Origin: an uncultured Rhodospirillaceae bacterium | GTDB taxonomy: Bacteria > Pseudomonadota > Alphaproteobacteria > UBA8366 > GCA-2717185 | DNA length: 62,453 bases | Assembly (NCBI GenBank): GCA_964474755.1 | Contig: CAYYUG010000013.1 | Coordinates: 1-62,453 of the forward strand | Direction of reading: 5' to 3' | Part shown: piece after piece, positions 1-60,069 of the stretch | How positions within the stretch are numbered: the stretch's first letter is position 1 | Layout of the letters: every line of letters starts with the position of its first letter | Translations under genes and position numbers: made by a program | Notes under the pieces: generated by a model | What the model was told of the DNA's origin: nothing | Database searches by the model: none | What the model saw: only the letters and a program-made list of their open reading frames with translations

Positions 1-588
1 GGGCTCCGAATAGGTCTTAGGTCCACCTTGCGCGTGGGTATACGTCGTATCAAGATCAATGATGTCGCGAATGTTAGCAGTTTCATCAATAATCATACTG
101 AACCAATGCGCAACGGATCGCATGGTCAATAGGCTTTCCCGTAGAGCCGCCGTGCGGCGCTCGCGTCCCGCCTCAATGCGCTTTGCGATGGCGACTTCAC
201 CCTCGCGGGATAGTAATTTCACGCTGCCCATTTCACGAAGATACAAGCGGACAGGATCATCGGTGAGAGCTTGATCGTCTAGATTGCCGATCGGCGCCGT
301 TTTTACGGCTGGTTTTACCTCCTCGGATTCAGAAACGTCATCAGACGCACTATCGTCTACAACGTCGATACCCATTTCGGACAACGTTGCCATCATGTCT
401 TCGATTTGTTCGGACGACACCTGTCCTTGCGGGAGGACTCGATTGAGCTGGCTCAATGTTATGCTGCCAAGCTCTTTGCCGGCAGCCAGCAGCTTTTCCG
501 TCTCCTGACCGATGTCGTCTATAGCCAGCGTGGCCTGTGTTGTGTCTGTTTGATCGTGACTTTGCGTTTGCTCTATCGCTAATTCCAT
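1..588 (-). CDS. rpoD: RpoD (sigma-70 group 1)-like RNA polymerase sigma factor, N-terminal part; runs off the window edge
   Basis: Not in the ORF track. Hand translation from ATG at 588 is open to position 1. It shows region 1.1 (KELGSITLSQLNRVLP..SSEQIEDMMATLSEMGIDVV) and region 1.2 (TDDPVRLYLREMGSVKLLSREGEVAIAKRIEAG). May be a paralog rather than the primary rpoD. Confidence 0.9.
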   Translation of the reverse strand, partial: MELAIEQTQSHDQTDTTQATLAIDDIGQETEKLLAAGKELGSITLSQLNRVLPQGQVSSEQIEDMMATLSEMGIDVVDDSASDDVSESEEVKPAVKTAPIGNLDDQALTDDPVRLYLREMGSVKLLSREGEVAIAKRIEAGRERRTAALRESLLTMRSVAHWFSMIIDETANIRDIIDLDTTYTHAQGGPKTYSEP

Positions 589-838
589 GATTTTCCGTTT
601 TTTGTGCTGCACAATGCTAACGTCGTCGACCCCGATATTTGCGGCGCCGAACGATGGAATTGCGAGCTTACTCCCCAAACCAAAGATAGTTTTTTATGCG
701 TCAAACGGCCGCAACATTGGCTCCACACTACGCATAGGAAAAGAGAATATTTTCAATATTTATTATTGTTTTTGCAAATATATAAAAATCGACCGAATTC
801 CGCTGCTTCCAGCCGATATATCTTTATTCTACGTATCT

Positions 839-1717
839 TTATTCTATCAAACGATCGTTACGATATTGTGCCACCGTCGCATCGAGGCCGCTTAGGGCAT
901 CTTGAAGGGCTTCGTCATCCATGTCTTCGGTGTGCACGGCGTAGACTGGGTATGAGAAGACCGGGGCGTTCGGGACTTTGCGCAGAGTGCCGTTTTGTAA
1001 ATAAGGCGCGCAAATTCGTCTTGGGAAGTACCCCGCTGCGCTAGCCCGGACTAAATAGTCTATCCCCAAGACACCAAGATCCAACGAAATGTGTGGTCGA
1101 CTGATGTCGGGAAAGTTCAACGCATGGTCGCTGCGGAATTCCGGTCCCCAATTTACGAAGACGTAATCTTCGCCCAACATCGGGTCCTTCGCCCCAGGGC
1201 TGGCCACCAAGATCATATCGTCATTGAACAATTTTCTTACCTGCAAACCACCGCGTTGTTGGGGTCGATACATGACGGCAATGTCAAGAGAGCCTTCAAG
1301 TAGGTTGTGCATCAAAATGTCGTTGTAGCCGACTTCGCATTTAATCGAGATCGCGGGCGCCTCGGCATGCATCCAGGCGAGCCAGGCGACGAGAAAGCTA
1401 CCCCAGATGCTCACCTGCCCACCTACGCGCAAAATCGCTGCAGTGTTTTCGCCGACGCCAACCTCAAGGCAAGCCTGATCCCAAATGCGGGCAAGGGCGA
1501 CTGCGTGCTTGGCGAACTCGCGGCCGGTCTTTGTCAGGGACGCGCCATTTTTGTTACGAGCGAAGACCTTGACACCCAGCTGCTCTTCTAGAGCACGAAT
1601 ACGCATACTTACCGTCGACTGAGTGACGTGTACATGGGCCGCGGCAGAGACGAAGCTGCCCGTCTCGACAACTGCTAAAAATGTCCGAATAATTGTAATG
1701 TCCATCTTCGGGTCCAT
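839..1717 (-). CDS. LysR-type transcriptional regulator
   Basis: N-terminal HTH (TFLAVVETGSFVSAAAHVHVTQSTVSMRIRALEEQLG), 292 aa, divergent from the dioxygenase pair. Confidence 0.95.
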   Translation of the reverse strand: MDPKMDITIIRTFLAVVETGSFVSAAAHVHVTQSTVSMRIRALEEQLGVKVFARNKNGASLTKTGREFAKHAVALARIWDQACLEVGVGENTAAILRVGGQVSIWGSFLVAWLAWMHAEAPAISIKCEVGYNDILMHNLLEGSLDIAVMYRPQQRGGLQVRKLFNDDMILVASPGAKDPMLGEDYVFVNWGPEFRSDHALNFPDISRPHISLDLGVLGIDYLVRASAAGYFPRRICAPYLQNGTLRKVPNAPVFSYPVYAVHTEDMDDEALQDALSGLDATVAQYRNDRLIE

Positions 1718-46654: not shown

Positions 46655-46987
46655 GCACGGCGTATATCAAATTTTTAACGACGGTGCACCAGCAATGAAA
46701 CACAAAATAATATCCAAATTTGCCAACAGAGCGTCACATTAGGCGGGGGTATAACTCACTTGACCTCACGCCTGGATGTTGCCCCATACTATATTAGATG
46801 TCGTTGTGACAGTTCCGGTGTGTTGTGGATCACGAAATACATCAGATACAGCACTAAACCCTTATATTTGATGCAGGAAACGGGATCTGACGGCTCCTTT
46901 GAGTTGCGCTACGCTGCTTTGGTGGGCGAACTACAAACGCGCCCAGCTATGGACAAATTTCTTCTGCTGAACGATGTTGTGGCCGTC

Positions 46988-48499
46988 ATGACGTCACAGA
47001 CTGAAAATTTCAAGACCCGCGAGGGGGCACCAGAAAACTTCGAGTTCGACAATAGCTTTGCTCGCGAACTCGAAGGCTGCTACGTCCCTTGGGATGCTGA
47101 AAAGGTTTCCGAGCCCCGCTTGCTAATGTTCAACTGTGAGCTGGCCGCTGAGCTTGGCCTCGATGGCGCTGCGTTAGAGACCCCTCTGGGTGCTGAGATC
47201 TTTGCCGGTAACCGTTTACCAAATGGGGCGAAACCGCTGGCCCAGGCCTATGCTGGTCATCAGTTTGGCGGTTTTTCGCCGCAGCTAGGTGACGGTCGCG
47301 CTCTGCTGTTGGGTGAAATTGTTGATACCTGCGGAAGGCGTCACGATATCCAGCTAAAGGGTTCAGGACGAACGCCTTTTTCGCGTGGCGGTGATGGCAA
47401 GGCTGCCCTTGGACCAGTGCTGCGCGAATACCTTATCGGTGAAGCAATGCATGCGCTTGGTGTGCCAACGACGCGAGCCCTTGCCGCTGTTACCACAGGT
47501 GATCAGGTTATCCGAGAGACCGCGCTGCCGGGAGCCGTACTCACGCGCATTGCAGCCAGTCACCTGCGCGTTGGCACATTTCAATTCTTTGCTGCACGCG
47601 GAGAGACAGAAATCGTCCGCCAGCTTGCCGATTACGCTATCGCACGTCACTACCCAGCGGCGCGCGAGGCAGATAACCCCTACTTGGCATTTTTTATTTC
47701 GGTTGCAAAGGCGCAGGCAGTGCTGGTTGCTGAGTGGATGAGCATCGGCTTCATCCATGGTGTTATGAACACGGATAATACCACAATTTCTGGCGAGACG
47801 ATTGACTATGGCCCTTGTGCCTTCATGGACGTCTACGATCCAGACACGGTTTTCAGTTCCATAGACCTGCAGGGACGCTACGCCTATGCCAATCAACCGT
47901 CTATCCTGACCTGGAACCTGGCGCGGTTGGCGGAAACCTTGATCGCGCTGGTTGATCCAAATAAGGATAGGGCGGTTGAATTGCTCACCGATGGCGCCAA
48001 TGAGGTTTCAAGCCTGTTTGGCGATGCTTGGCTGGCGCGCATGCGCGCCAAGATCGGCCTCAACTCTGCAGAAGATAACGACGTCAAATTGATCAACCGC
48101 CTCCTTGATGCGATGTATCAGGGCAAGGCGGATTTTACGCTGACGTTCCGGCGCCTGTCAGACGTCCTGCGCGGCAACGATATGCCGGTGCGCGCACTAT
48201 TCGAAGACCCTGCAGTATTCGACGTGTGGGAGAATGATTGGCGGAGTCGGTTGGATCGAGAGCAATTCTCTGCCAGGGATTGCGCAGGCGCAATGGACCA
48301 GGTGAACGCTATCTACATTCCTCGCAACCATAAGGTAGAAGAGGCTTTGGTCGCCGCCGTAGACCAAGGCAATATATCGGCATTTGAGGATATGTTGTCG
48401 GTCGTCTCGAAACCGTTTGACGAGGTTAGCGGATGCGAGGGTTACGCGGAGCCGGGGAGCAAAACCGCTGTTCCCTATCAGACCTTTTGCGGCACATAA
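46988..48499 (+). CDS. selO: Protein adenylyltransferase SelO/YdiU
   Basis: YAGHQFG, LGDGRA, QLKGSG, HGVMNTDN, IDYGP, C-terminal TFCGT. Confidence 0.95.
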   Translation: MTSQTENFKTREGAPENFEFDNSFARELEGCYVPWDAEKVSEPRLLMFNCELAAELGLDGAALETPLGAEIFAGNRLPNGAKPLAQAYAGHQFGGFSPQLGDGRALLLGEIVDTCGRRHDIQLKGSGRTPFSRGGDGKAALGPVLREYLIGEAMHALGVPTTRALAAVTTGDQVIRETALPGAVLTRIAASHLRVGTFQFFAARGETEIVRQLADYAIARHYPAAREADNPYLAFFISVAKAQAVLVAEWMSIGFIHGVMNTDNTTISGETIDYGPCAFMDVYDPDTVFSSIDLQGRYAYANQPSILTWNLARLAETLIALVDPNKDRAVELLTDGANEVSSLFGDAWLARMRAKIGLNSAEDNDVKLINRLLDAMYQGKADFTLTFRRLSDVLRGNDMPVRALFEDPAVFDVWENDWRSRLDREQFSARDCAGAMDQVNAIYIPRNHKVEEALVAAVDQGNISAFEDMLSVVSKPFDEVSGCEGYAEPGSKTAVPYQTFCGT

Positions 48500-48548
48500 T
48501 CGTTAATCATTTTTGCATAATTACTTGTGAAATTTGAAAGAAAAGACG

Positions 48549-48584
48549 TAGTAAATTAAGTATGCGCGCATAATTAATTTACTA
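48549..48584. repeat. 36-bp near-perfect palindrome
   Basis: TAGTAAATTAA-G-TATGCGCGCATA-A-TTAATTTACTA (one mismatched pair). Confidence 0.9.
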
Positions 48585-48915
48585 GCTGGTTAACACGGTA
48601 TGTCATTTATGCGCGTTGTTTGTTCCAGTCTCGGTCAATTGAATTACGGCGTTCTTGAATATATCCGCAATGCTGTTTCATCAATTATCAATTCGTTATC
48701 AGCCTCTGGGTCAGGCTATAAGAGGCTCGACCCATTGCCCGTATGCTGTAAAACTCGATAAATTTGTCGCGCGCTTAAAAAAACTAACTTGCTGAATTAT
48801 AATATTAAAATCGGGTTTATAGGTGCCATAAACTAACGTCAGTGATTTGGTAATGCGAGGGTTTGTAACCAGCTCTATAGGTATTTTTGCGCCCTCTGCG
48901 TTTATTAGTTAACTA

Positions 48916-49461
48916 ATGGTTATGAGTTTTGTAATGCACAGAATTAATAAACCTGAGCTCAATCGAGACCGCTTGAGGTACAAAAGAAGCTTCGATCTCC
49001 TAGGGCTTATTGTATTTATAATTATGTGTCTTGCGGTATCCAGTGTTGGCGGCGCTATCACGGCAACGAGTGTGGACACCTGGTATCAAGCTTTGGAGAA
49101 GCCGCCGTTCAATCCGCCTGATTGGGTATTTGCACCAGTTTGGACCGCACTTTACATCCTTATGGGCGTTGCGGCTTGGCGGATATGGCGACTTCGATCA
49201 TCAAAAGCGCATCATATTGCTCTTTCGGTATTTGGTTTGCAGCTCTGTCTCAACCTAGCTTGGTCTTTTCTATTTTTCGGTTTACAGCATATCAATTTGG
49301 CTTTGGTCGAGATTGTCATTTTACTCATTGTGATCATCATCAATATGATCATGTTCTGGCGCCTCGAACGCCTAGCCGGCCTGCTTTTCGTGCCTTACGT
49401 CGCGTGGGTCTCATTCGCAACAATACTTAATGCCTCACTTTCGCTGCTAAACAAAATTTAG
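48916..49461 (+). CDS. tspO: TspO/MBR tryptophan-rich sensory protein
   Basis: WYQALEKPPFNPPDWVFAPVWTALY, LNLAWSFLFF, PYVAWVSFATILN; exact start uncertain. Confidence 0.95.
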   Translation: MVMSFVMHRINKPELNRDRLRYKRSFDLLGLIVFIIMCLAVSSVGGAITATSVDTWYQALEKPPFNPPDWVFAPVWTALYILMGVAAWRIWRLRSSKAHHIALSVFGLQLCLNLAWSFLFFGLQHINLALVEIVILLIVIIINMIMFWRLERLAGLLFVPYVAWVSFATILNASLSLLNKI

Positions 49462-49565
49462 CTATGGCAGGTAAACGCGGATTAAGCGCGGTCTTGGTGG
49501 TATTCTCGTTGCGCAGAAACCACTAGAACTAATCAGCGTTTTGAAACTTTATCTAAAGCGCCGGT

Positions 49566-49967
49566 TCACAATTTCCGTCCGTAAAGCTCCAGTTTACGGT
49601 CGACAAGTTCGTATCCAAGACGGTCGGCGATGTTTTCTATCAGGGCTTCAAGGTCGTCGTCCTGAAACTCTAGTACCTTCCCATCTTTTACATCGATAAC
49701 ATGATGGTGCTGGTCTAGGTTGGTCTCGAAGCGGGCTTGCCTATCATTGAATTCATGGCGTCGGACAAGGTTCATGTCGTCCAGGATATTAAGCGTCCGA
49801 TAAACTGTGGCTACGCTTACGCTAGAATCTATCACCCTCGAACGCTGGTGAATCGTATCGACTGACGGGTGGTCGTCCGCTTGGTCGATAATCTGAAGAA
49901 TGACGCGGCGTTGAGCAGTCATTTTCAGCCCCGCATCGATACACCGCTGTACTAAACTAACTGCCAT
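49566..49967 (-). CDS. fur: Fur-family metalloregulator (Fur/Mur type)
   Basis: GLKMTAQRRVI, DHPS, SVATVYRT, HHHVID, LELYG. Confidence 0.92.
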   Translation of the reverse strand: MAVSLVQRCIDAGLKMTAQRRVILQIIDQADDHPSVDTIHQRSRVIDSSVSVATVYRTLNILDDMNLVRRHEFNDRQARFETNLDQHHHVIDVKDGKVLEFQDDDLEALIENIADRLGYELVDRKLELYGRKL

Positions 49968-50229
49968 ATTCACACACTCTGTTTCCTTGGAAATCGCACA
50001 TGCCTTTTTGGCAAAAGTTATTGGACGATTTTACCGCTTCACTGGCCTAACCGATTTTTGATCCCTTGCTGCCCAAAAGGGCTTTAAAGCCCTCGAGCCT
50101 CGGATACCTTAAATAGAGGCCCTTCTTTCTACCGGTATCCGTTTGCGACCCGCAAAACGCATAGTATCGAGGCCAGGTTTTGAATTAGTGGTGGCTGGAC
50201 CAGACAGTCTTGAGTAGTCCTGCGTAATG

Positions 50230-50739
50230 TCAATGACGTGGCCCGATGTAGTTTTCGCCATTAACCTCGGAAATTGTCCTTGCCGCTTCGACTTTGACAG
50301 GTTTGCGTAAGCGGAGCCTCAAGCCAGCCTTACTCAGCGCGCAGGAAAGTTGTTTTATCGGGGTCTGGGCCACACGTTGTGCAGCTTTAGGCAACCAAGC
50401 ACTCAAATACGGATTAATATGACTTTCATCGTAATCGTGTTGCCAGGCGGCGATTGCGCCAATAATACGTTCTTCGTCGGGACTAATCGATGAGCACTTG
50501 GTGCAACGAATGTCGATACGCTGTTGCGCTGATACGGTGATGATCGTCATCAAATCGTCGAGCGCCGGATGGCCATCCGGCGCGCGGGCAAGTTTGAAAG
50601 CCGTCCGCAATTCAGACTGGACATTCGTCTCATTTTTCAAGGCCTGAACCCAGAAACGGACGGCCCAAACAATTAACTGTTCACTGAAGGGGAGCTCTCC
50701 ATATTCGTCTGAATTGGGTAGGTGTTCAGAACTGTCCAT
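50230..50739 (-). CDS. Hypothetical protein with CxxC..SxDE motif (paralog of 55817-56329)
   Basis: Clean ORF just downstream of the DUF2325 gene; EQLIVWAVR, RCTKCSSISPDE, ALSKAGL. Confidence 0.8.
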   Translation of the reverse strand: MDSSEHLPNSDEYGELPFSEQLIVWAVRFWVQALKNETNVQSELRTAFKLARAPDGHPALDDLMTIITVSAQQRIDIRCTKCSSISPDEERIIGAIAAWQHDYDESHINPYLSAWLPKAAQRVAQTPIKQLSCALSKAGLRLRLRKPVKVEAARTISEVNGENYIGPRH

Positions 50740-50782
50740 CTGTTTTATCCAACTACTGGGGGGAATGGTTTTTTCGAAAGGT

Positions 50783-51949
50783 TTATGTGGTGTACAGGCC
50801 ATTACGAAGGACGGCGACGAAAGACGTGATCCCGGAGCTGCGCAGCGGAACGAAGGGTTTCATTGTCTGGTGGCAAAGTTGTTTGACCTTAAGGGCCGCG
50901 CTGTGGCTGACGCAGTCGGTCGGAAACATTACCGCGTCGGCTTTAGAGACTTCGCGTGCCAACCCAGCTATAGACCGCTCTATACCGCCGTCATGGTGTA
51001 AAAGCTGGCCGTTCCATTTTTCGACCAGAGCACGTAGATGATGAACCGTATGCTGACGTCCGCCGACGTATAGTAGACAACGGCCATCGAGATCGAAGTC
51101 GCATCTGGTTTTTGATGCAGTGCATTCGCCATGAATGATGCTTTCAAGGGACTGGTTCTCTTCCCGCAGAGCAACGTTTTGTTGCTGCAGTCTTTCGACT
51201 TCGACACCTTTCTCCGCAACAGCTGCGTAGAGACGTGTGATCTCTGCATCGCGTTGCGCCATTTCGCTTGTAAGGTGCTGCTGCAGGGCCGGTTGCAGCC
51301 GGTCAAAACGCACATCGTCTGCAACCTTCGCCTTAGAGTACGGTTGAGCTCTTAGGCTATTTTTCAGCTGCGCGATTTCTCGGTTTTTTTCTTCGAGGCG
51401 TAGATAATTTCGCTGATGTTGTTTCCCTAACTTTTCGTCCAGTGATGCCACTTGGTTTTCGAGTGCGCTGAGGCGCCGGACATCGGCCCGATTGGAGGCG
51501 CCGACGAGATGTGAAAGCATGTGAACATCGGCAAACATGCGTTCGCATAACGCACCGGCGTCCATGGGGTGGGTGAGTATTGCCCAATATAATCCAGGGA
51601 CGCTGCCTGACGCCCGAGCATCCGACCAAAGCGCCTCCAGATCTTTAATGGATCTTGCATCTTTCGCTTTGCGGATTGCGCCCGTATGCCGTTTGTCCAA
51701 CAACTTGTTGAGCAATTTAGCCGGCCGTTTCGGCTCACACGCCTCCTTCACGAAGTAGCCGTGAAACTGATAATCCTGCGGCTCGCCGGCGCGGGTGTGC
51801 AGCGACAGCTTTCGCCCTAGCGCACGGAGATCGGATAGGGTCAGGCAGGTCCCCAGGATCGAGCAATGCCAACCGCTGTTCAAATCCCAAAGGCGTTTTC
51901 GACGCCCTGATGCCATCTTTGTATCCAATTTGTCACATGCCGTGCACAT
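50783..51949 (-). CDS. Long-form DUF2325 protein (Cys/His N-terminal domain, coiled coil, C-terminal DUF2325)
   Basis: RRKRLWDL..HCSILGTCL, HMLSHLVGA, heptad-rich middle, YVGGR..HHDGG..ADAVMFPTDCVSH; GGAGGG RBS. Confidence 0.85.
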   Translation of the reverse strand: MCTACDKLDTKMASGRRKRLWDLNSGWHCSILGTCLTLSDLRALGRKLSLHTRAGEPQDYQFHGYFVKEACEPKRPAKLLNKLLDKRHTGAIRKAKDARSIKDLEALWSDARASGSVPGLYWAILTHPMDAGALCERMFADVHMLSHLVGASNRADVRRLSALENQVASLDEKLGKQHQRNYLRLEEKNREIAQLKNSLRAQPYSKAKVADDVRFDRLQPALQQHLTSEMAQRDAEITRLYAAVAEKGVEVERLQQQNVALREENQSLESIIHGECTASKTRCDFDLDGRCLLYVGGRQHTVHHLRALVEKWNGQLLHHDGGIERSIAGLAREVSKADAVMFPTDCVSHSAALKVKQLCHQTMKPFVPLRSSGITSFVAVLRNGLYTT

Positions 51950-52094
51950 GAAAAAAATCCCCTCCGTGAGGTGCTTTGCGCTTAGTTCTTTGAGATTGTT
52001 CGGGGCGTGTTTTGCTTTGGTTTTTTAGTTTTTCTGGCAATTGCTTCAGCGACCAAAATACGCGCCAGAATTTGTAAATTGATAAACCTGATGG

Positions 52095-52655
52095 TCATTG
52101 GGCGATGTCCGTCTGGACTTGGTCAACATCTTTGCTCATGCCGGCTTCATCCGCGACGCCGGATAGGAAATGAACCATCGCTTCCAGCCGCTGCTGCTCC
52201 ATAATCATCCAAAATGTTTTGTACCGGCCCTCATACGGACATTTCGCACTGCGCTGTTCGAAGGACTCAAGCCTTGCCTGCAGCCTATTTCGAAAGCTGG
52301 TAAGGACCGAATGCGCAGTCTTCGCATCCGTCGAATCCAGCAAGCACATTTGAATTGCTTCGGCCGCATGGAAAGCCGACGGTGCCAGATCCTCTGGCGG
52401 GCATAGCAGTAGTTTTTTGGTTTTCGCTATACCCTTGAGCGTAACGTTAAGGCGTTCGTCTGATCGGTGAACCCCTGTGCGCCGCAAGTGAGCCGTGCCC
52501 AAATTTCTCTCTATTACAGCTGCTATTACACTCGTAGTAGGGTGCCAGTGTTCTGGAACCAATGCCTTAGCGGCGACCGCAATACTATCGGGTTTGATCG
52601 GTCCATCGCTGGCAATACCTAAAACGGCTAGATCGACGATGGATGCGCCTATCAT
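52095..52655 (-). CDS. Hypothetical protein, PadR-like winged-helix architecture
   Basis: LAVLGIASDGP, ..NVTLKG (wing-like) and a helical C-terminus; preceded by Fur-type boxes. Confidence 0.65.
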   Translation of the reverse strand: MIGASIVDLAVLGIASDGPIKPDSIAVAAKALVPEHWHPTTSVIAAVIERNLGTAHLRRTGVHRSDERLNVTLKGIAKTKKLLLCPPEDLAPSAFHAAEAIQMCLLDSTDAKTAHSVLTSFRNRLQARLESFEQRSAKCPYEGRYKTFWMIMEQQRLEAMVHFLSGVADEAGMSKDVDQVQTDIAQ

Positions 52656-52680
52656 AAATGTGCCCTTTTCAAGTAATGCA

Positions 52681-52750
52681 AATGCGACTTATTATCATTA
52701 TATTTGCCGAATATGACCAATATTGCAAGTGATAATAAGTCGCATAAACT
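52681..52750. promoter_or_regulatory. Two identical Fur-type iron boxes in inverted orientation plus a sigma70-like + strand promoter
   Basis: ATGCGACTTATTATCA (52682-52697) and its exact reverse complement TGATAATAAGTCGCAT (52730-52745); TTGCAA-N16-TAAACT at 52723-52750. Confidence 0.7.
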
Positions 52751-52989
52751 AATAATGCACTGGCAATGCAAAGGGCAACAAGTAGGATTCAATGATGGTA
52801 TCTGTCCGCACCGATTAGTGTCTTTTGGAAACACCGTTGCAGGAAGCCGGACCTAAAATGACAAAAGTTGTGAGTAGAAAAAGTAAGTGCCGAGAGGTTT
52901 TGGATACTCGGCTAAATACACCAGTCCATATGCCTAGCCTACAGGACGTTACCCGATTGGGCCATTTAATAGCCAGGTTGCGTAGGCGT

Positions 52990-53256
52990 CTATTCGATCC
53001 ACTCGGCGACCTTCAACTGCGCGTCACGCTCTGGCATCTTCGGGTTATGCAGCCGGTAGACATTAGTTGCGGAATTGAAAGCCATCACTTCGGTAACGCC
53101 GCATCTGCGCAGTTCACGGAAAGCGCGACGGACAATTTTGCGGAATTTCAATGCGGCTTGTCCGTGGGGACATAGATTTTCGGTCTGTTTTGCTTGCACG
53201 GTATTTGGATCCGATCTGTCTGACTGAGTGTGCCCTTGGCTTTGAAGCTGGTTCAC
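52990..53256 (-). CDS. Small hypothetical protein
   Basis: GTG start; helical core VRRAFRELRRCG..AFNSATNVYRLHNP..VAEWI; downstream of and co-oriented with bfd. Confidence 0.7.
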   Translation of the reverse strand: MNQLQSQGHTQSDRSDPNTVQAKQTENLCPHGQAALKFRKIVRRAFRELRRCGVTEVMAFNSATNVYRLHNPKMPERDAQLKVAEWIE

Positions 53257-53372
53257 CGCACTTCTTCAAAGCTATAAATTCACAGTTTTCCGCTTACGTA
53301 CCGGCTTCAATCTTCAAAGCGGCGAGAAGGTTGAGTACCACGCTGCCTTTGAGGGAAGGCAAAGCAAACATT

Positions 53373-53594
53373 TCAGGTTGCTACAGCTAAGGCATTGGAG
53401 TCGATGAATGAATTTGGCTCGTGATGCGATGTTTTGAGATGATCGGCGATTGCATCGGCGATCTCACATTCGCATTTGCCACAGCAGGGGGTGAAGTCGT
53501 AATAGGCGTGAACTTCGTTCCAGCAAGCCGCCCCGCTGCAGGCAGCCGCCTTTACTTGACGTTCAGATATACCATTGCAATTACATATCAGCAT
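53373..53594 (-). CDS. bfd: Bacterioferritin-associated [2Fe-2S] ferredoxin
   Basis: MLICNCNGIS..CCGKC. Confidence 0.92.
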   Translation of the reverse strand: MLICNCNGISERQVKAAACSGAACWNEVHAYYDFTPCCGKCECEIADAIADHLKTSHHEPNSFIDSNALAVAT

Positions 53595-53620
53595 TTACGC
53601 CTACTTTCTAACACGGTTTA

Positions 53621-53660
53621 ATGCGAATGATTATCATCATTATTGCGAATGATTGTCAAT
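53621..53660 (-). promoter_or_regulatory. bfd promoter overlapped by tandem Fur-type boxes
   Basis: TGCGAATGATT(A/G)TCA repeated at a 22-bp period (53622, 53644); minus-strand TTGACA-N18-GATAAT. Confidence 0.75.
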
Positions 53661-53963
53661 ACCATAACGGCCACACGTTATACGAAAGACGAGACTACGC
53701 GGTCCGAAAATTTCATTATCCGCGAGAGAAACGATTTACGTAGTGAGGAACCGGTTGAAGTGACACCCGAAATCCCGAGCAGCTCAACCTCATCTTTATA
53801 ACCGCACCAACGGCTATCGACCTCATAGCTAGTCGCCAGATGAGACTGATGGTTAAGGTTTTCTGGCGCATCGCGTTACCCAATTGCATCTACGCGCGCT
53901 TGGTCGTGTTTTTGTCGGGTACGAGCTAGGGCCCGCTTTTGCGTTGGCGCCCCAACAAACGCA

Positions 53964-54926
53964 TCACGCGGCTTCTGAGGCAACTAAATGCCCTGGGCTC
54001 ACTTCATTGTAGGTGAGAACTGGCGGCGCGTAATCAAGCGGACGTACCGCACTTGGGATTTCGTCCACTTCTATATTGCGTTCGGTGCGGCGCAACGCGG
54101 GATCGGCCACCGGAACCGCCGACAGAAGCTTTTTCGTATACTCATGTATCGGGTTTTCAAAGACTGCGGCACGGGGTCCGATTTCCACGATGCGGCCCAG
54201 ATACATGACGGCCACGCGATGGCTGATCCGCTCGACCACGGCCATGTCATGACTGATGAAAAGAAAAGATAGGCCTAAATTTGACTGCAGGTCCATCAGC
54301 AGGTTGATGACCTGCGCCTTGATCGTAACATCGAGCGCAGACACAGCTTCGTCGCAGATAATCATTTTTGGATCGAGCGCGAGTGCTCTCGCGATAGAGA
54401 TGCGCTGCCGTTGTCCACCGCTGAGCTCGTGCGGGAACCGGCTCGCGAAGTGGGGCTTAAGATTGACTTTTTCAAGCAAGTCGGCGATGCGGGCCTCGAC
54501 ATTTTTTTGCTGGAGTAGATTGTGCACCCGGATCGGTTCTGCCAGCGTGTCATAGACCGACATGCGGGGGTTGAGGGACGAATACGGATCTTGGAAAATC
54601 ATTTGCACCGAGCGACAAAACGCGAGGCGCTCCTCCCGCGAGTGCTCCAGTACTGACTGACCGTTGAACAGGATTTCTCCCGAGGTTGCCTCCTGAAGTC
54701 CCATAATGGTGCGGCCCGTGGTTGTCTTCCCGCAACCGCTTTCGCCGACTAGGCTCAACGTCTCGCCCCGCTTGATCTGAAAGGAGATGTCCTCGACCGC
54801 GTGCACTCGTGATGACGTACGCTTGAAGAAGCCGTCAGTGATATCGAAGCGGGTCGTCAAATTGTTGACTTCGAGTAGATAGGGGCTCGGGTGCATCACT
54901 GGTTCCATAGGGGAAAATTCCTTCAT
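53964..54926 (-). CDS. Oligopeptide/glutathione-type ABC ATPase (DppF-like; resembles the C-half of GsiA)
   Basis: GESGCGKT, IFQDP, LSGGQRQR, CDEAVSALD, HDM; start may be 54908. Confidence 0.9.
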   Translation of the reverse strand: MKEFSPMEPVMHPSPYLLEVNNLTTRFDITDGFFKRTSSRVHAVEDISFQIKRGETLSLVGESGCGKTTTGRTIMGLQEATSGEILFNGQSVLEHSREERLAFCRSVQMIFQDPYSSLNPRMSVYDTLAEPIRVHNLLQQKNVEARIADLLEKVNLKPHFASRFPHELSGGQRQRISIARALALDPKMIICDEAVSALDVTIKAQVINLLMDLQSNLGLSFLFISHDMAVVERISHRVAVMYLGRIVEIGPRAAVFENPIHEYTKKLLSAVPVADPALRRTERNIEVDEIPSAVRPLDYAPPVLTYNEVSPGHLVASEAA

Positions 54927-54945
54927 TTCACTTAGCTAAAATTGA

Positions 54946-55806
54946 CTACTCGACAACTTCCGGAAATTTCTCCGGCTTCTGCTTGCCGGCCATGCTGCCG
55001 ATACGGGGTACGGCGCCGATAAGCTTTTTCGTGTAGTCATGTTTCGGTTTGTGGAAGATGTCATGCACAGGGCCATGCTCGACAATCTTGCCCTCGTACA
55101 TGACGATGACATCGTCAGCCATCTCTGCAATGACCGCCATGTCGTGGGTGATAAACAACACCGACATGCCAAATTCCTCTTGAACGTCTTTTATCAAATC
55201 GAGGATCTGCGCCTGAATTGTCACATCGAGGGCTGTCGTAGGTTCATCTGCGATCAACAGCGATGGGCCGCAGGCTAGCGCCATAGCGATCATGACGCGC
55301 TGGCGCATGCCGCCAGATAGGTTATGAGGGTACTGACTGAGCTTACTCTCAGCATCAGGAATGCGGACACGCCGCAACAGGCCTAGTACTTTCTCTTCCG
55401 CTTCGTCTCCTGTGAGGTTTAGGTGTTGGAAAAGTGCCTCGGTTAGCTGCGTTCGGATCGTCAGTACGGGATTGAGGCACGTCATGGGTTCCTGAAAGAT
55501 CATGCCAATTTCTCGGCCTCGGACCGTTCCCATTGTCTTTTCGTCCGCCTTCGTGATGTCAACCCGACCGAGACGATCACTGTTTAGAAATATACTTCCC
55601 ACGGGCATGTATGCGCCTGCCATATCGTTGAGCCGCAGCATCGACATAGATGTCACAGATTTGCCTGATCCGGATTCGCCGACGACGCCCAGGGTTTTCC
55701 CCTTCGGGATATTAAAAGTAATGCCCCGTACAGCCTCGACATGCTTTCCGACGGTGGGGAAGGTGACATGGAGGTTGTCGACCTCCATTAGGACGTCCTG
55801 CGACAT
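54946..55806 (-). CDS. Oligopeptide/glutathione-type ABC ATPase (DppD-like; resembles the N-half of GsiA)
   Basis: [33 protein letters not shown]. Confidence 0.9.
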
Positions 55807-55816
55807 GTGTGCTCCT

Positions 55817-56329
55817 CTAATGCAATGTTTCGGTGTTGAGATTTTTAAATTTCAGGTTCAAGCCGTGGTTGATACTGACCGACGGCACGTTTCGATTGTT
55901 GCGGTTGACGGAGGTCACCAGCATCCTCGCTTTCAGTTGTCTTGTTGTGCGCATCTTTAGGCCTGCTTTGTTCAATGCGGTGGCGATATCGTTCAAAATT
56001 TCCTGCGCTATTTGGACGCTGTCCTGTGGAAACCACCAATGCAGCACTTCCGTGACCGTTTTTTCGTTACCACAGTGTTTCTCAGAAATTACGTAAAGCA
56101 ATTGAAGTTCAAACAGAGTTGTCTTCGAATCGAAGAGGGGCCGAAGCTTTACGGCAAAGGGATCGTGGTCGCGTAGTAGGTCGATGAAAATTTGAAGAAG
56201 TGGTCCGATTTCGTCGAAAGCTTCTCTGTTCTCTGCCGACAGCCATGTGTCCTGCGACCTATAGAGGTGTCTCCGCGTGGCTTGGATGATAAGCGTTTCA
56301 AGGGCATCTAGAGAGATGTGTAGTGTCAT
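55817..56329 (-). CDS. Hypothetical protein, CxxC-less paralog of 50230-50739
   Basis: ETLIIQATR, WFPQ..IAQ..ALNKAGL; 10 bp upstream of the ATPase gene. Confidence 0.75.
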   Translation of the reverse strand: MTLHISLDALETLIIQATRRHLYRSQDTWLSAENREAFDEIGPLLQIFIDLLRDHDPFAVKLRPLFDSKTTLFELQLLYVISEKHCGNEKTVTEVLHWWFPQDSVQIAQEILNDIATALNKAGLKMRTTRQLKARMLVTSVNRNNRNVPSVSINHGLNLKFKNLNTETLH

Positions 56330-56351
56330 ATTTCAACTAGTTAGGAATTAT

Positions 56352-56376
56352 AATGATATTAATAATTATTCTCAAT
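56352..56376. promoter_or_regulatory. Fur-type box upstream of 55817-56329
   Basis: GATATTAATAATTATTCTC (56355-56373) matches 15/19 of GATAATGATAATCATTATC. Confidence 0.6.
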
Positions 56377-56654
56377 AATGGCATAAAGCAAACGAAAATT
56401 ATTCGTACCACTGGAAATGTATGCCGATTTACGACTCGTTAAGGAATTAAATTAGGTCAATTTGTGACATTACGCTAAATGCGATGACGAGTGTGCTAAC
56501 CCGTGATTTGAAGGTTTCCTGCCTATGTGACGTACCAATATGAGATCGTTGAAAACGGTAATTCTCTATTGGTGCCGGTTAATATTAGTACTGTGGAATC
56601 AAATACAATTTAGAGAAATTAATAATTATTCGCAAATATAAATAAAGAAATACT

Positions 56655-56673
56655 GATTATGATAATCATTATT
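56655..56673. promoter_or_regulatory. Fur box upstream of the bfr pair
   Basis: GATTATGATAATCATTATT matches 17/19 of GATAATGATAATCATTATC. Confidence 0.75.
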
Positions 56674-56773
56674 AATAACAGTTCTGATAATTAATCGTAA
56701 TTAAATAATGTTTACTTTAATTAATTATGTTAATACTTTAATTTATATAGAGCAGGTTATTTGGAGGTTGAGC

Positions 56774-57238
56774 ATGAAGGCAAGCACAACCATCATCAGA
56801 CAGCTGAATGCTGTTCTCAAGAATGAACTGATTGCGATCAATCAGTCTTTTCTACATTCCCGCATGTTCAGAAATTGGGGCATGGGCCGTATCGGCGAGC
56901 GGGAATACAAGAAATCAATCAATGACATGAAGCAGGCCGATAAACTTATCGAACGGATTTTGTTTCTCGAAGGGCTTCCGAACCTGCAAGATCTGGGCAA
57001 GCTGCGTCTCGGCGAAGACACCGAGGAGATCCTGCAATGTGAACTTGCACTAGAAACTGACAGCATTGCCGAATTGCGAAAAGCGATCACATTTTGCGAG
57101 AACGAGAAGGACTTCGTCTCACGTGAAGTGCTCGACGATATTCTTAAAGATGAGGAGGAATTTGTCGATTGGGTGGAAACCCAGATCTTGCTGGTTAGAG
57201 ATATGGGCCTCAAAAATTATATCCAATCACAAGCTTAG
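56774..57238 (+). CDS. bfr: Bacterioferritin, heme-binding subunit with a degenerate ferroxidase centre
   Basis: ERILFLEG; Met52 retained; Y25S, E51D, H54Q and the second His ligand replaced by F; GGAGG RBS. Confidence 0.92.
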   Translation: MKASTTIIRQLNAVLKNELIAINQSFLHSRMFRNWGMGRIGEREYKKSINDMKQADKLIERILFLEGLPNLQDLGKLRLGEDTEEILQCELALETDSIAELRKAITFCENEKDFVSREVLDDILKDEEEFVDWVETQILLVRDMGLKNYIQSQA

Positions 57239-57251
57239 GGAGGACAAACGG

Positions 57252-57722
57252 ATGAAAGGTAACGCCAAGGTAATCGAAATTCTAAATGGCCTGCTTACTC
57301 ATGAGATGTCCGCCGCCGATCAATACTTCATCCACTCACGAATGTTTGAAGATTGGGGTTTGGAGGAACTCTATGAGCGCCTCAAGCACGAACAGGAAGA
57401 GGAATTAGGGCACGCTGCGCAGCTCGTCGAACGAATCCTGTTTTTGGAAGGCATGCCTGATGTAGCTGCGCGCGAGAAACTCAACATTGGTGCTGACGTT
57501 AAGAGTATGGTTGAGAACGATCTCGCCTACGAAGTTTTCGTGCAAAAAGAGCTGGTTGCAGCCATTGCAAGCTGCGAGCAGGAAAGCGATTTTGTCAGTC
57601 GGCAAGTTTTAATCAAGCTACTCGAAGATACCGAAACCGACCACATCCACTGGTGTGAACAGCAGCTCGGCCTCATCGACAAAATGGGTGTGCAGAACTA
57701 TATCCAGTCGAAGACCTCGTAG
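57252..57722 (+). CDS. bfr: Bacterioferritin, ferroxidase subunit lacking the heme ligand
   Basis: E18, Y25, E51, H54 and ETDH retained; Leu at position 52; GGAGG RBS. Confidence 0.92.
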   Translation: MKGNAKVIEILNGLLTHEMSAADQYFIHSRMFEDWGLEELYERLKHEQEEELGHAAQLVERILFLEGMPDVAAREKLNIGADVKSMVENDLAYEVFVQKELVAAIASCEQESDFVSRQVLIKLLEDTETDHIHWCEQQLGLIDKMGVQNYIQSKTS

Positions 57723-57733
57723 CCGATTGGTTT

Positions 57734-57764
57734 GGTAGCTTTTCGGGCAAAACCCGATGCTACC
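57734..57764. terminator. Hairpin after bfr (probable terminator between convergent genes)
   Basis: GGTAGC-TTT-TCGGG-CAAAA-CCCGA-T-GCTACC; no clear U-tract. Confidence 0.45.
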
Positions 57765-57986
57765 GGGTATAGTTGGTTAGCGCGGATGTTGTTGCCCTCT
57801 TGCGTCGCAGAAGTTGGCCCGGACGCAGAAATTATCGTTATTAATGGCAAAATCAGCTATTTCAAAGTGGTTTAATAGGAACATATTTATCCGGGCGCGC
57901 CGGCTATGCCTGCCGATATAGCCTACCAGCCACCACATGAGTGTGCGTCTTTCGATTATCATCGCCTGGGTCGTGCCATGTCGCAG

Positions 57987-59264
57987 TCACACATGAGCAT
58001 TTATTTGTGACTTGCAGGTTGGTGTCGCAAGAAACGCCAGAATTGCAGAACCGAACCCGAGCATGGAAAATAACGTAAGCGACGCATCATAGCTGCCAGT
58101 GATATCAAATAGCGCACCTGAGACCAGCGGGCCGGACGCCTGTGCGAGTGTTTGCACCGGTATGGTGACACCACGGATAGCGCCAAGATTTTCACGTCCG
58201 AAATTGTTCGCCCATGCGACAGGCAGGATGGTCAGTAAGCCTCCGATACCGGCACCGAAGGTGACCGCTGCTAAATAGGCAGTCCAGGTATCTGAAACAA
58301 ACAGCATTACGGTACTGCCAAGACCAATCAGTGTTGCTGCCACCGCGAGACCCAATCGTGCGCCGTGTCGCAATTCGAATTGCCCGAAGAGGAGCCCTCC
58401 AAATGCCGCCGACATAGAAAATAAGCTTACGGCTGAGGCTGCGATACCCATGGATAATCCACGATCGATCATATGTGGGGCCTGATGCAGGCTGACACCA
58501 GCCTGTACGGGATAGATGAACACGGAAAACGCAATCAAGAGCCAGAAAGTCGAAGTTTGCATTGCCTCTCGGCGCGTAAAACTCACTTCTGGATTGGTTG
58601 CTTTATCGCTGTCGGTGTTTTCAAGGGTAGACTGCGAGACAGTATAGGGGCGAAGGCCGACATCTTCCGGTCGCTGAACCACTAAAAAGTAGTTTGGTGT
58701 AACACCGACGACTAGCACAAAAGCGGCGATCACAAGCCAACCTATTCGCCAATCCCAGAGATCTATAACCGAGAAAGCGACCAGCGGTAAAACGGTCAGG
58801 CCGATGCTGTGCGCTAGCGCGGCAAATGACATGGCACGCCCACGAAGTTGGATAAACCAGTTGGCTATTGCGCTGGTAATGGCGATTTCGAACGGTCCCG
58901 CGAAGGCCATTCGGCCTAGGCAAAATGCTATATAGAACCAGATCAGTGATCCCGTTTGCGATAGAGCAATCATGCTGACGCCAATTAAAAAGGTGCCGGC
59001 TACAAGTATCTGACCGGAACCTCGGCGATCGACCAAGACGCCAACTTTTGGAGAAACGACGGCGCCCAGTAATCCTCCAAGGGATACAGCGCCCGAGAAT
59101 TCAGTCATTGACCAGTCAAACGCTGTGGACATGGGAATAGCAAAGATCGACAGCGTCGCGACCGCGGAACCCTGCCGTGCAAAATTTGCACACATTGCGC
59201 ATCCCACGATTACCCAACCGTAGAAAAACGGCGTCCGTTGGATCAAACCTTTGGGGTTGGGCAT
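57987..59264 (-). CDS. MFS transporter
   Basis: FFYGWVIV, GVLVDRRG, NWF..RGRA, FGRENLG, GALFDITGSY. Confidence 0.92.
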   Translation of the reverse strand: MPNPKGLIQRTPFFYGWVIVGCAMCANFARQGSAVATLSIFAIPMSTAFDWSMTEFSGAVSLGGLLGAVVSPKVGVLVDRRGSGQILVAGTFLIGVSMIALSQTGSLIWFYIAFCLGRMAFAGPFEIAITSAIANWFIQLRGRAMSFAALAHSIGLTVLPLVAFSVIDLWDWRIGWLVIAAFVLVVGVTPNYFLVVQRPEDVGLRPYTVSQSTLENTDSDKATNPEVSFTRREAMQTSTFWLLIAFSVFIYPVQAGVSLHQAPHMIDRGLSMGIAASAVSLFSMSAAFGGLLFGQFELRHGARLGLAVAATLIGLGSTVMLFVSDTWTAYLAAVTFGAGIGGLLTILPVAWANNFGRENLGAIRGVTIPVQTLAQASGPLVSGALFDITGSYDASLTLFSMLGFGSAILAFLATPTCKSQINAHV

Positions 59265-59334: not shown

Positions 59335-59868
59335 CTAGTTTTTCGCTTCAATGTTCTCGAAAATATTCTGGGGTGATGATGCGCCGTAGGGGTCTGTATC
59401 GCAATTGTCACTAAAGCCGGGTTCTTCGAACCACGCTTCGATCACCCCGTCATCGACGACTGCGGCGTATCGCCAGGAACGCATGCCGAACCCAAGATTA
59501 TCCTTATTTACCAGCATTCCCATCTTTCGTGTGAATTCGCCGGAGCCATCGGGGATTAATTCTACGTTTGTGACGCCCTGATCCTTTCCCCATGCATTCA
59601 TCGTGAAGGCGTCGTTCACCGATAGGCAATAGATCGCGTCGACGCTTTTTGTCCTCCTGAATTCATCGCTCAAATTTTCGAAATCTGGCAGTTGATAGGT
59701 TGAACAAGTGGGTGTGAACGCACCAGGCAAGGAAAATAGGATTGCCCGCTTTCCCTTGAAGTAGTCCGCTGTTGTTTGATCTTCCCAGCGGTACGGATTG
59801 GCCCCCTCAAGAGTTTCGTCGCGGACGCGTGTTTTGAATGTGACATCGGGAAGCGATTTTCCGATCAT
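59335..59868 (-). CDS. Peroxiredoxin, Prx5 type
   Basis: LPGAFTPTCS, SVNDAF, GMRSWRY. Confidence 0.95.
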   Translation of the reverse strand: MIGKSLPDVTFKTRVRDETLEGANPYRWEDQTTADYFKGKRAILFSLPGAFTPTCSTYQLPDFENLSDEFRRTKSVDAIYCLSVNDAFTMNAWGKDQGVTNVELIPDGSGEFTRKMGMLVNKDNLGFGMRSWRYAAVVDDGVIEAWFEEPGFSDNCDTDPYGASSPQNIFENIEAKN

Positions 59869-59947: not shown

Positions 59948-59972
59948 TTGCAAATGCAAATTAGTATCATAA
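59948..59972. promoter_or_regulatory. Possible Fur-type box upstream of the peroxiredoxin
   Basis: TTGCAAATGCAAATTAGTATCATAA resembles the boxes at 52681 and 53621; AT-rich context. Confidence 0.4.
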
Positions 59973-60069
59973 TAATTTATTTACAAGGCTAAGCCTTCGT
60001 TAAATTTTTTTTTAAGGGGGCTTATTTGGGATAGATCGATATCTGTCGCAATTTCACAACTAGAAGTCA

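Follow-up and report, generated by a model that had tools for sequence, protein, structure and literature searches.

A candidate Fur-controlled iron-homeostasis island joining bacterioferritin genes to four conserved protein families in an uncultured Rhodospirillaceae bacterium

We analysed a stretch of 62,453 nucleotides from an uncultured Rhodospirillaceae bacterium (contig CAYYUG010000013.1 of the 4.3-Mb genome assembly GCA_964474755.1), hereafter the window, and within it a locus at positions 49566-57722 that encodes two bacterioferritin subunits (bfr1 and bfr2), the bacterioferritin-associated ferredoxin Bfd and several uncharacterised proteins. Four families of this locus are of particular interest: a long protein ending in a DUF2325 domain, a CxxC protein that we call P190, an AphA-like regulator and an 88-residue protein, P88. 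Their recurring neighbourhood, the Fur-type boxes and the company of bfd, bfr and imelysin genes lead us to view them as conserved, uncharacterised members of a predicted iron-starvation regulon. On comparative sequence evidence it is very probable that these genes belong to an iron regulon and that their linkage is real. The fuller reading, in which the locus is a Fur-controlled iron-homeostasis island whose sensing and regulatory module acts on iron release from bacterioferritin, comes, taken whole, a little short of an even chance in our judgement, and the particular mechanism of sensing and regulation set out below is offered tentatively, as possible and somewhat doubtful.

The listing of open reading frames (ORFs) gives eleven genes within the locus, nine on the minus strand and the two bfr genes on the plus strand. 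Every ORF named in an earlier note on this DNA lies where that note had placed it; two Dpp/Opp-type ATP-binding cassette (ABC) ATPases were missing from its list. The genes form four apparent transcription units: the AphA-like gene with the DUF2325 and P190 genes, bfd with P88, a P190 relative (P170) with the two ATPases, and bfr1 with bfr2. The first of these may possibly read through into the gene of a Fur paralog that follows P190.

A scan with the classical 19-bp Fur consensus, scored by mismatch counts, found 20 consensus-like positions (up to six mismatches) in the window, and 15 of the 20 fall in four intergenic regions of the locus. Two tandem boxes with 4-5 mismatches lie over the bfd promoter (53617-53663), a box with four mismatches at 56355 lies over the P170 promoter (56349-56379), a weaker operator pair with 5-6 mismatches precedes the AphA-like operon (52678-52749), and further boxes are found about 100 bp 5' of bfr1 (56615-56679). 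The scan thereby confirmed the boxes that the earlier note had seen before each apparent unit, at 52682/52730, 53622/53644, 56355 and 56655. The site at 56655-56673, with two mismatches, is the best match in the genome. Across the whole 4.3-Mb assembly only 15 positions have four mismatches or fewer, five of them in this 8-kb locus, and dinucleotide-preserving shuffles lead one to expect 0.02 sites at three mismatches or fewer, a stringency that 56655 reaches. As predicted sites, the Fur-type boxes of the locus are far from chance.

The boxes also coincide with putative promoters. The two best sigma-70-like promoters of the region, each matching at 11 of 12 positions, are TTGACA-18-GATAAT at 53659>53630, overlapping the bfd boxes, and TTGAGA-17-TATAAT at 56375>56347, overlapping the P170 box. 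A weaker promoter-like site (52719>52691, 9/12) overlaps the box pair before the AphA-like gene, where it is bracketed by the arms of a perfect 16-nt inverted repeat (52682-52697 and 52730-52745, 32 nt apart). The bfd box pair (53618 and 53640) is instead a 19-nt direct repeat with a spacing of 22 nt. The arms at 52682 and 52730 share the core GCGA..T.ATTATCA with these tandem boxes. A consensus-like site at a promoter, above the chance level, is the mark of a Fur regulon, and such sites were found both at the locus and at its homologs.

To place the locus among its relatives we counted neighbours in the best 80 loci that encode a long DUF2325 protein (1.37 Mb), taking as Fur-like any site with up to five mismatches. 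A search of the order gave 16 loci that partly repeat the 80 (L019, for example, is L044 and L020 is L045), and counts refer to the 80 alone where possible; many related loci end at contig ends, and all neighbour counts are lower bounds. A Fur-like site lies within 1.5 kb upstream of the start of the long DUF2325 gene in 28 of the 80 loci, among them that of the cultured carrier Hwanghaeella grinnelliae (L045), whose box is 88 bp upstream. The 80 loci hold 116 Fur-like positions altogether: 40 are within 500 bp before the DUF2325 gene, 15 more are 500-1500 bp upstream and precede an AphA-like gene lying before it, and the remainder are mostly 4-8.5 kb downstream, where the bfd and bfr homologs lie, and beyond an imelysin cluster. 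Within 10 kb of the DUF2325 gene we found a P190-family gene in 19 loci (within 1.5 kb in 16), an AphA-like gene in 11, P88 in four, bfd in 17, bfr in 13, either of the last two in 20 and Fur in none of the 80. Imelysin and di-haem oxidoreductase genes come next downstream in 22 of 97 loci; Pfam confirmed the cluster in L041 (Peptidase_M75, DHOR and DUF1513, L041:11711-16860). In the nearest relatives, L041 and 21 further loci, the imelysin/DHOR/DUF1513 cluster stands between the DUF2325-P190 pair and bfd; the present window does not have it.

The P190 family was also followed by itself. It is present in 44 of 201 evenly sampled alphaproteobacterial genomes, and we examined 40 loci from these genomes, anchored only on the P190 family. 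Fur-like sites are concentrated near its genes: 29 of 39 positions lie within 600 bp of a P190-family gene, a span that makes up 11% of the sequence. Half of the loci (20/40) have such a site within 600 bp, one of them a perfect match (L195), and in one more locus an Irr-type box with a single mismatch stands at the start of the P190-family gene. A search for Irr-type iron control element (ICE) boxes in the 40 loci gave only three matches, one at a gene start. The only recognisable recurrent close neighbour is bfr, which adjoins the P190-family gene in six of the 40 loci and lies within 8 kb in seven; in four of the six a small bfd ORF is found between or beside the two. Linkage of homologs to iron genes and Fur boxes elsewhere, which the earlier note had asked to be checked, was thus found in both sets of loci, with boxes in 28/80 and 20/40.

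The long DUF2325 protein (50783-51949, minus strand, 388 residues) is a clear member of the DUF2325 family: PF10087 matches residues 291-382 with 76.9 bits against a cut-off of 33.6, covering positions 1-92 of the 94 in the profile. In an alignment of 63 sequences C29, C35, H63, W108, W122, M144, S146 and H147 are invariant in the N-terminal part and G296, H319, D320, G322, P343, S348 and H349 in the DUF2325 domain, where at least 90% of the sequences have C346 and C359. A further MCxxC motif opens the protein at 22 of the 34 loci with a readable start. Cysteine and histidine occur at about twice the background frequency; the earlier note had described the unknown proteins of the locus at large as rich in Cys and His ligands. 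In the P190 family the CxxC motif is found in only 87 of 122 aligned rows. A role in sensing or trafficking may be read from such richness, as a tentative step.

An AlphaFold model of the long DUF2325 protein (predicted local distance difference test score, pLDDT, 88; predicted template modelling score, pTM, 0.48) divides it into a helical Cys/His domain (residues ~17-130), a hairpin of two helices of 60 to 70 residues (132-278) and an alpha/beta domain (291-382). A Foldseek search of the PDB at E up to 0.001 found no match for this model or for that of P190. A wider fold search gave structural neighbours for the alpha/beta domain only, namely generic receiver, Rossmann-like, deoxyribosyltransferase and TIR folds with Z scores of 8-10; the best row, 4b09, has a Z of 9.9 with a root-mean-square deviation of 2.5 over 93 residues, and deoxyribosyltransferase, sugar-binding proteins and TIR domains follow within one Z unit. 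The conserved residues of the DUF2325 domain are His, Asp and Cys, unlike the receiver pattern. The DUF2325 profile matched only coiled-coil proteins among solved structures, and the N-terminal 150 residues gave no usable match in the Atlas. We also considered a stand-alone form of the N-terminal domain: all 15 shorter matches to it lie on contigs of 2.5 kb or less or of unstated length and, given these short contigs, are most likely fragments. Prediction of a complex between the long DUF2325 protein and P190 returned a score of 0.00, which is no answer and speaks neither for nor against binding.

Of 91 genomes from the order, 17 encode a full-length relative of the long DUF2325 protein, and in a collection of species genomes 582 of 596 candidate stretches encode a relative. 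The hosts are mostly Rhodospirillales, Acetobacteraceae, Reyranella, Inquilinus and similar bacteria. Records titled Flavobacteriaceae, Leptospira interrogans, Mycobacterium sp., Udaeobacter and Anaerolineae (L051, L059, L063, L088, L102, L109) also carry such genes, which are 37-45% identical to alphaproteobacterial ones; mislabelling, contamination or gene transfer could each account for them.

P190 (50230-50802, minus strand) has no Pfam or NCBIfam match. A public record begins at residue 22, so the start is probably at 50739, giving 169 residues. A profile built from 27 sequences shows the family to be very large: it retrieves the representatives of 2812 clusters at 50% identity when E may reach 0.001, and of 1404 when the limit is set at 1e-10. 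Pfam scans at E up to 1 gave no match for any of the 27 aligned members, and ten top representatives scanned at E up to 0.1 gave no match beyond two rows at chance level. A lead to DUF6628 (PF20333), taken from 12% of one Atlas cluster, found no support in these scans. The P190 model (pLDDT 86, above 95 in the core) is all-alpha, with a best PDB similarity of Z 5.8, and the profile found no match below E 0.5 among solved structures. By these searches, neither a Pfam model nor a fold relative of solved structure is available for the P190 family, which is marked by a CxxC loop and, at the C-terminus, a hydrophobic-His end. Across the 122 rows that were compared R49 is kept in 120, W51 in 118 and E110 in all 122; the chain ends in His in 92 of 121 members of single length and in 26 of 29 doubled ones. 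These tandem-doubled forms make up 29 of the top 150 representatives, exceed 260 residues and are mostly 303-376 residues long. In a doubled form at L084:11265-12272 the first repeat lacks CxxC and the second has it, mirroring the P170/P190 pair.

The P170 gene (55817-56329, minus strand) had been described in the earlier note as a CxxC-less paralog, and P170 is indeed, on its sequence, a weak but real relative of P190. BLASTP aligns the two with 30% identity over the C-terminal 64 residues (E 3e-8), a P190-family hidden Markov model (HMM) from which P170 had been left out still recognises it (E 6.8e-5), and the C-terminal T-L-H end is common to P170 and the family. P170 is rare and lineage-specific, with four homolog clusters in a large protein collection. 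It is the first gene of the ATPase operon and is transcribed divergently from bfr1.

The third P190-family member of the genome belongs to a second module, on contig C81 (L002:1-1676). A Fur-like box at C81:1409 (four mismatches) opens this module, which consists of a P190-like gene without CxxC (867-1337, minus strand), a peroxiredoxin gene (294-824, minus strand) and then a long DUF2325 gene of which only the N-terminal 86 residues remain before the contig end. The peroxiredoxin of this module has a close paralog in the window, a Redoxin-family gene at 59335-59868 with weak Fur-like sites (six mismatches) just 5' of it at 59950-59974.

The protein encoded at 52095-52655 (minus strand, 186 residues) had been counted as an uncharacterised PadR-like protein, a description that has to be revised: it falls in a recognisable family of AphA-like regulators with a solved structure. 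Its single sequence reaches 25.6 bits with PF14557, just below the cut-off of 27, and a profile of 12 homologs matches PDB entry 2rkh, a 'putative AphA-like transcription factor', at E 5.5e-15 (query residues 5-175 against 7-178 of the 180 in the chain). By family, therefore, it is predicted to be a DNA-binding regulator. In each of the 11 of 80 loci with an AphA-like gene, that gene is directly upstream of the long DUF2325 gene, and boxes also stand upstream of it in the relatives L039 and L043.

P88 (52990-53256, minus strand) has no family match. A 69-residue form is on record, and the start is therefore probably at 53199. A word-index search with P88 found only itself; genome searches and an HMM brought up relatives in 11 of 91 genomes from the order, which share a conserved C-terminal part of about 50 residues. 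P88 keeps related company elsewhere: in L115 and L118 its neighbours are bfr and a P190-like gene, in L092, L106 and L113 it lies divergently next to genes for AphA-like and DUF2325 proteins, and in L094, again in the company of both, it lies upstream of the DUF2325 gene.

The ferredoxin gene bfd (53373-53594, minus strand) encodes a 73-residue protein that narrowly misses the gathering score of PF04324 (23.4 bits against 26) and has the four-Cys pattern CxC...CxxC of this family (C4, C6 and the CGKC motif). It lies 3.2 kb from bfr1, and homologs at 41-63% identity are found near bfr in relatives. Both bacterioferritins, bfr1 (56774-57238, plus strand) and bfr2 (57252-57722, plus strand), pass the TIGR00754 equivalog cut-off of 125.55 bits, with 214.9 and 170 bits. 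If residue numbers and roles are taken, as we assume, from the E. coli protein, with Met52 as the haem ligand, Bfr1 keeps Met52 and has Asp51 and Gln54 instead of Glu and His, and Bfr2 has Glu51 and His54 with Leu instead of Met at 52. This split suggests complementary subunits, one haem-binding and one ferroxidase.

The two ABC ATPases, of DppD/OppD type (54946-55806, minus strand) and DppF/OppF type (53964-54926, minus strand), each match PF00005 and PF08352. The DppD/OppD-type gene starts 11 nt past the P170 stop. Both ATPase genes share a Fur-boxed operon with P170, and neither a permease nor a binding protein is encoded in the vicinity. These ATPases may energise a transporter encoded elsewhere.

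The regulator at the end of the locus (49566-49973, minus strand, 135 residues) had been called fur. It does belong to the Fur family (PF01475, residues 14-131, 115.3 bits against a cut-off of 23.1, E 2.4e-33), but not to canonical Fur: it scores 82.3 bits against the 146 required by the Fur equivalog NF006999, and it reaches no NCBIfam equivalog cut-off, with 73.6 bits for PerR and 52-59 for Irr. The genome has three Fur-family genes, this one, one on contig C17 with canonical motifs and an Irr-like one on C84; the local protein is 46% identical to the C17 Fur and 32% to the Irr-like protein. HH-HV replaces the HHDH of the C17 Fur and Arg replaces the His of the VDH motif; we take the residues so lost to be metal-binding in Fur. 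The one-residue gap in the HHH motif is common to the local paralog and the Irr-like protein. On sequence, then, the local gene encodes a divergent Fur paralog, and a more canonical Fur is encoded on contig C17. A Fur gene adjoins the long DUF2325 gene in two other genomes, L024 (canonical type) and L032.

The closest named relatives of the DUF2325 gene are from Magnetovibrio and from Rhodospirillaceae metagenome-assembled genomes, and metagenomes of seawater or marine plankton from several studies hold the locus nearly whole, which together point to a marine host of Rhodospirillales type. Four marine metatranscriptome libraries contain contigs that match the locus at 95% identity or more: three libraries have parts of bfr1/bfr2, two have bfd with the 5' part of P88, and one or two have P190, the DUF2325 gene and the stretch from P190 to the Fur paralog; such contigs show presence of the sequence in RNA only, carry neither strand nor level nor iron response, and their gaps in cover are uninformative. 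An Rfam scan of 49000-58000 at E up to 1 found no RNA family. Genes for the protein adenylyltransferase SelO and for TspO (46760-49461) directly adjoin the island. In related loci SelO, the major facilitator superfamily (MFS) gene and the Dpp-type ATPases do not recur beside the module, and the ABC matches, at 25-31% identity, are generic.

How might these genes work together? We propose that under low iron Fur would leave its boxes and the module would be made. The long DUF2325 protein reads as a dimeric sensor or transducer by its invariant Cys/His set, its hairpin coiled coil and its small alpha/beta domain; it would dimerise through the helical hairpin, and C29, C35, H63 and H147, with the N-terminal MCxxC in many members, could bind iron or an Fe-S cluster. 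The AphA-like winged-helix protein would provide the transcriptional output where it is present. Finally, the P190-family and P88 proteins, which are small, soluble and poor in cofactors and have a disordered tail ending in a conserved His, read as partner-docking adaptors; they may act at the Bfd-bacterioferritin step and tune iron release against storage. Taken further, the P190 family may be a widespread, unrecognised partner of Bfd and bacterioferritin that iron starvation induces, and the long DUF2325 protein a new kind of dimeric Cys/His sensor of iron or Fe-S that acts with it and with an AphA-like regulator; jointly they would add a second tier, beneath Fur, to the control of iron starvation in alphaproteobacteria. 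We think this extension rather unlikely to hold in full.

Several observations weigh against the reading of the locus as a regulated iron-release island. Most of the long DUF2325 loci (52/80), mainly from soil lineages, have neither a consensus-type box nor these neighbours; the genes that recur in their place encode a periplasmic binding protein (PF01497) and an ABC ATPase, and such hosts may use other iron regulators or have no iron control. Half of the P190 loci (20/40) likewise have no consensus-type Fur box. The AphA-like gene is absent from 69 of the 80 DUF2325 loci, so transcriptional output through it cannot be general. CxxC is missing in 35 of the 122 P190 rows and in two of this genome's three paralogs, which argues against an essential metal site in the family. 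Long DUF2325, AphA-like or P88 genes were found in none of the 40 P190-anchored loci and the long DUF2325 family in only 5 of 201 genomes of an even sample of the class, and the four families are therefore not an obligate complex. Finally, the receiver- or flavodoxin-like fold match of the C-terminal domain is generic, and storage genes such as bfr do not usually follow a Fur box. The idea of an iron-starvation module, put forward in the earlier note, thus passes the test of comparative linkage and needs qualification: P170 is rare, the AphA-like protein is of a known family and the local 'fur' is divergent.

The unknown proteins could instead have no regulatory role and move iron out of bacterioferritin directly, the P190-family, P88 and long DUF2325 proteins serving as electron-transfer partners, as acceptors of Fe2+ or Fe-S, or as chaperones beside Bfd. 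The adjacency of P190-family genes to bfr in six of 40 independent loci, in four of them with the bfd-bfr pair, speaks for such a role, as do the position of P170 divergent from bfr1, that of P88 after bfd here and by bfr in L115 and L118, and the conserved Cys and His residues of the DUF2325 protein together with the CxxC (87/122) and C-terminal His (92/121) of the P190 family. However, bfr is missing from the surroundings in 34 of the 40 P190 loci, many members do without CxxC, fold searches with the P190 model recognised no redox or metal-binding fold, and a coiled coil with a receiver-like domain and a linked DNA-binding protein looks more like signalling; we consider direct iron release fairly improbable. 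A module serving mainly in defence against peroxide or oxidative stress, which has regulators in common with iron control, would have the Cys-rich proteins as redox sensors or thiol buffers. Such a role would accord with the peroxiredoxin gene between the P190-like and long DUF2325 genes on C81, the paralogous peroxiredoxin at 59335-59868 with its weak Fur-like sites and the fact that the local Fur paralog scores PerR models almost as well as Fur models. It would also fit a DUF2325 gene of Campylobacter which is PerR-regulated, lies beside katA and is the most strongly induced gene under light that generates reactive oxygen species (PMC9426514). Yet what recurs in the neighbourhood is bfd, bfr and the imelysin cluster, with no peroxiredoxin or catalase among the recurrent neighbour clusters, and the boxes match the Fur consensus, which leaves this explanation distinctly unlikely.

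A haem theme is less likely again: the genes would sense or traffic haem or porphyrin destined for haem proteins, among them the bacterioferritin subunit that binds haem. Here one may cite the HHH motif and gap that the local Fur paralog has in common with the Irr-like protein together with its loss of two canonical Fur residues, the Met52 of Bfr1 (the haem ligand if E. coli numbering applies) and the TspO gene next door, TspO being a family of porphyrin-binding proteins. Dpp-type transporters import haem in E. coli, which also counts for this theme. The Campylobacter DUF2325 gene, too, adjoins a haem-trafficking gene (PMC9426514). Against this, TspO stands beside the module in none of the 96 related loci searched and no gene for haem uptake or synthesis recurs in the neighbour clusters of related loci. 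Lastly, the adjacency could be incidental, with unrelated genes set in AT-rich DNA that resembles Fur boxes. The GC content does fall to 0.44 at 56001-58000, AT-rich DNA yields weak consensus-like matches, and the 12 promoter-like sites of the region do not amount to an excess over the 9.6 of shuffled sequence. But shuffles give 0.02 sites at the stringency of 56655, boxes lie at the same position relative to homologs in many genomes of different GC, and the gene linkage also recurs in other genomes; chance adjacency is largely refuted and most improbable. We retain the Fur-controlled island with a sensing and regulatory module as the best explanation at hand.

To our knowledge, the release of iron from bacterioferritin and the control of that release are understood in detail for only a few bacteria, in which no partner other than Bfd is known. 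The present locus and its relatives suggest four further families with the same predicted regulation and neighbourhood, one of them very large and unannotated. Iron limits growth in much of the ocean, and several studies of seawater metagenomes have recovered marine Rhodospirillales bacteria of the host type. The hypothesis could be put to the test directly in a cultured carrier such as Hwanghaeella grinnelliae. The outcome would also give a first functional context to DUF2325, the domain that is strongly induced under oxidative stress in Campylobacter (PMC9426514).

The literature searched, which did not extend to most subscription journals or to the supplementary tables of regulon papers, offered no functional description of DUF2325, in keeping with the earlier note, and nothing on DUF6628 or on the AphA-like family in connection with iron. 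The one functional context that it gave for DUF2325 is that of the PerR-regulated Cj1384c of Campylobacter. In the same literature we did not find described the P190 family as a conserved, Fur-boxed neighbour of bacterioferritin, the long, Fur-boxed form of DUF2325 linked to bacterioferritin, or the AphA-like regulator and small P88 family that complete the set. Caulobacter has iron- and Fur-regulated 'hypothetical proteins' (PMC3751524), one of which could conceivably belong to the P190 family.

Set against known systems, parts of the locus are familiar. Two-subunit bacterioferritin heteropolymers, with a haem-binding and a ferroxidase subunit, exist, and the residue split between Bfr1 and Bfr2 is alike, with nothing unusual seen. 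The AphA-like protein resembles AphA/PadR-type winged-helix regulators such as 2rkh over its full profile length, with the weak PF14557 match, and here its gene heads the Fur-boxed operon that also includes the long DUF2325 gene. The local Fur-family regulator is like Irr and other alphaproteobacterial paralogs in its HHH motif with the one-residue gap, and differs from Irr in being closer to Fur both by identity (46% vs 32%) and by model scores. The frame as a whole is also known, being a Fur-regulated bfd-bfr locus with, in relatives, an irpA-type cluster; the BfrB-Bfd pair of Pseudomonas aeruginosa is an example of such a Fur-repressed storage and mobilisation system. For the long DUF2325 protein the comparison is with Cj1384c of Campylobacter jejuni, whose function is stated as unknown (PMC9426514): both are Cys-rich, have the PF10087 domain and stand under a regulator of the Fur family (PerR in Campylobacter), but Cj1384c has 104 residues and adjoins catalase, whereas the protein here has 388, with an added N-terminal Cys/His helical domain and a long hairpin, and is linked to bfd and bfr. 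In alphaproteobacteria bfd-bfr and irpA are predicted members of iron regulons, and the imelysin/DHOR cluster of the relatives corresponds to the irpA-type cluster placed beside bfd-bfr there (PMC1698941). The present locus is like these Fur-repressed bfd-bfr(-irpA) loci in having bfd and bfr behind iron-regulator boxes and, in relatives, the imelysin cluster; it differs in a box that also stands before bfr and in four more families, the long DUF2325, P190, P88 and AphA-like proteins, with Fur boxes of their own.

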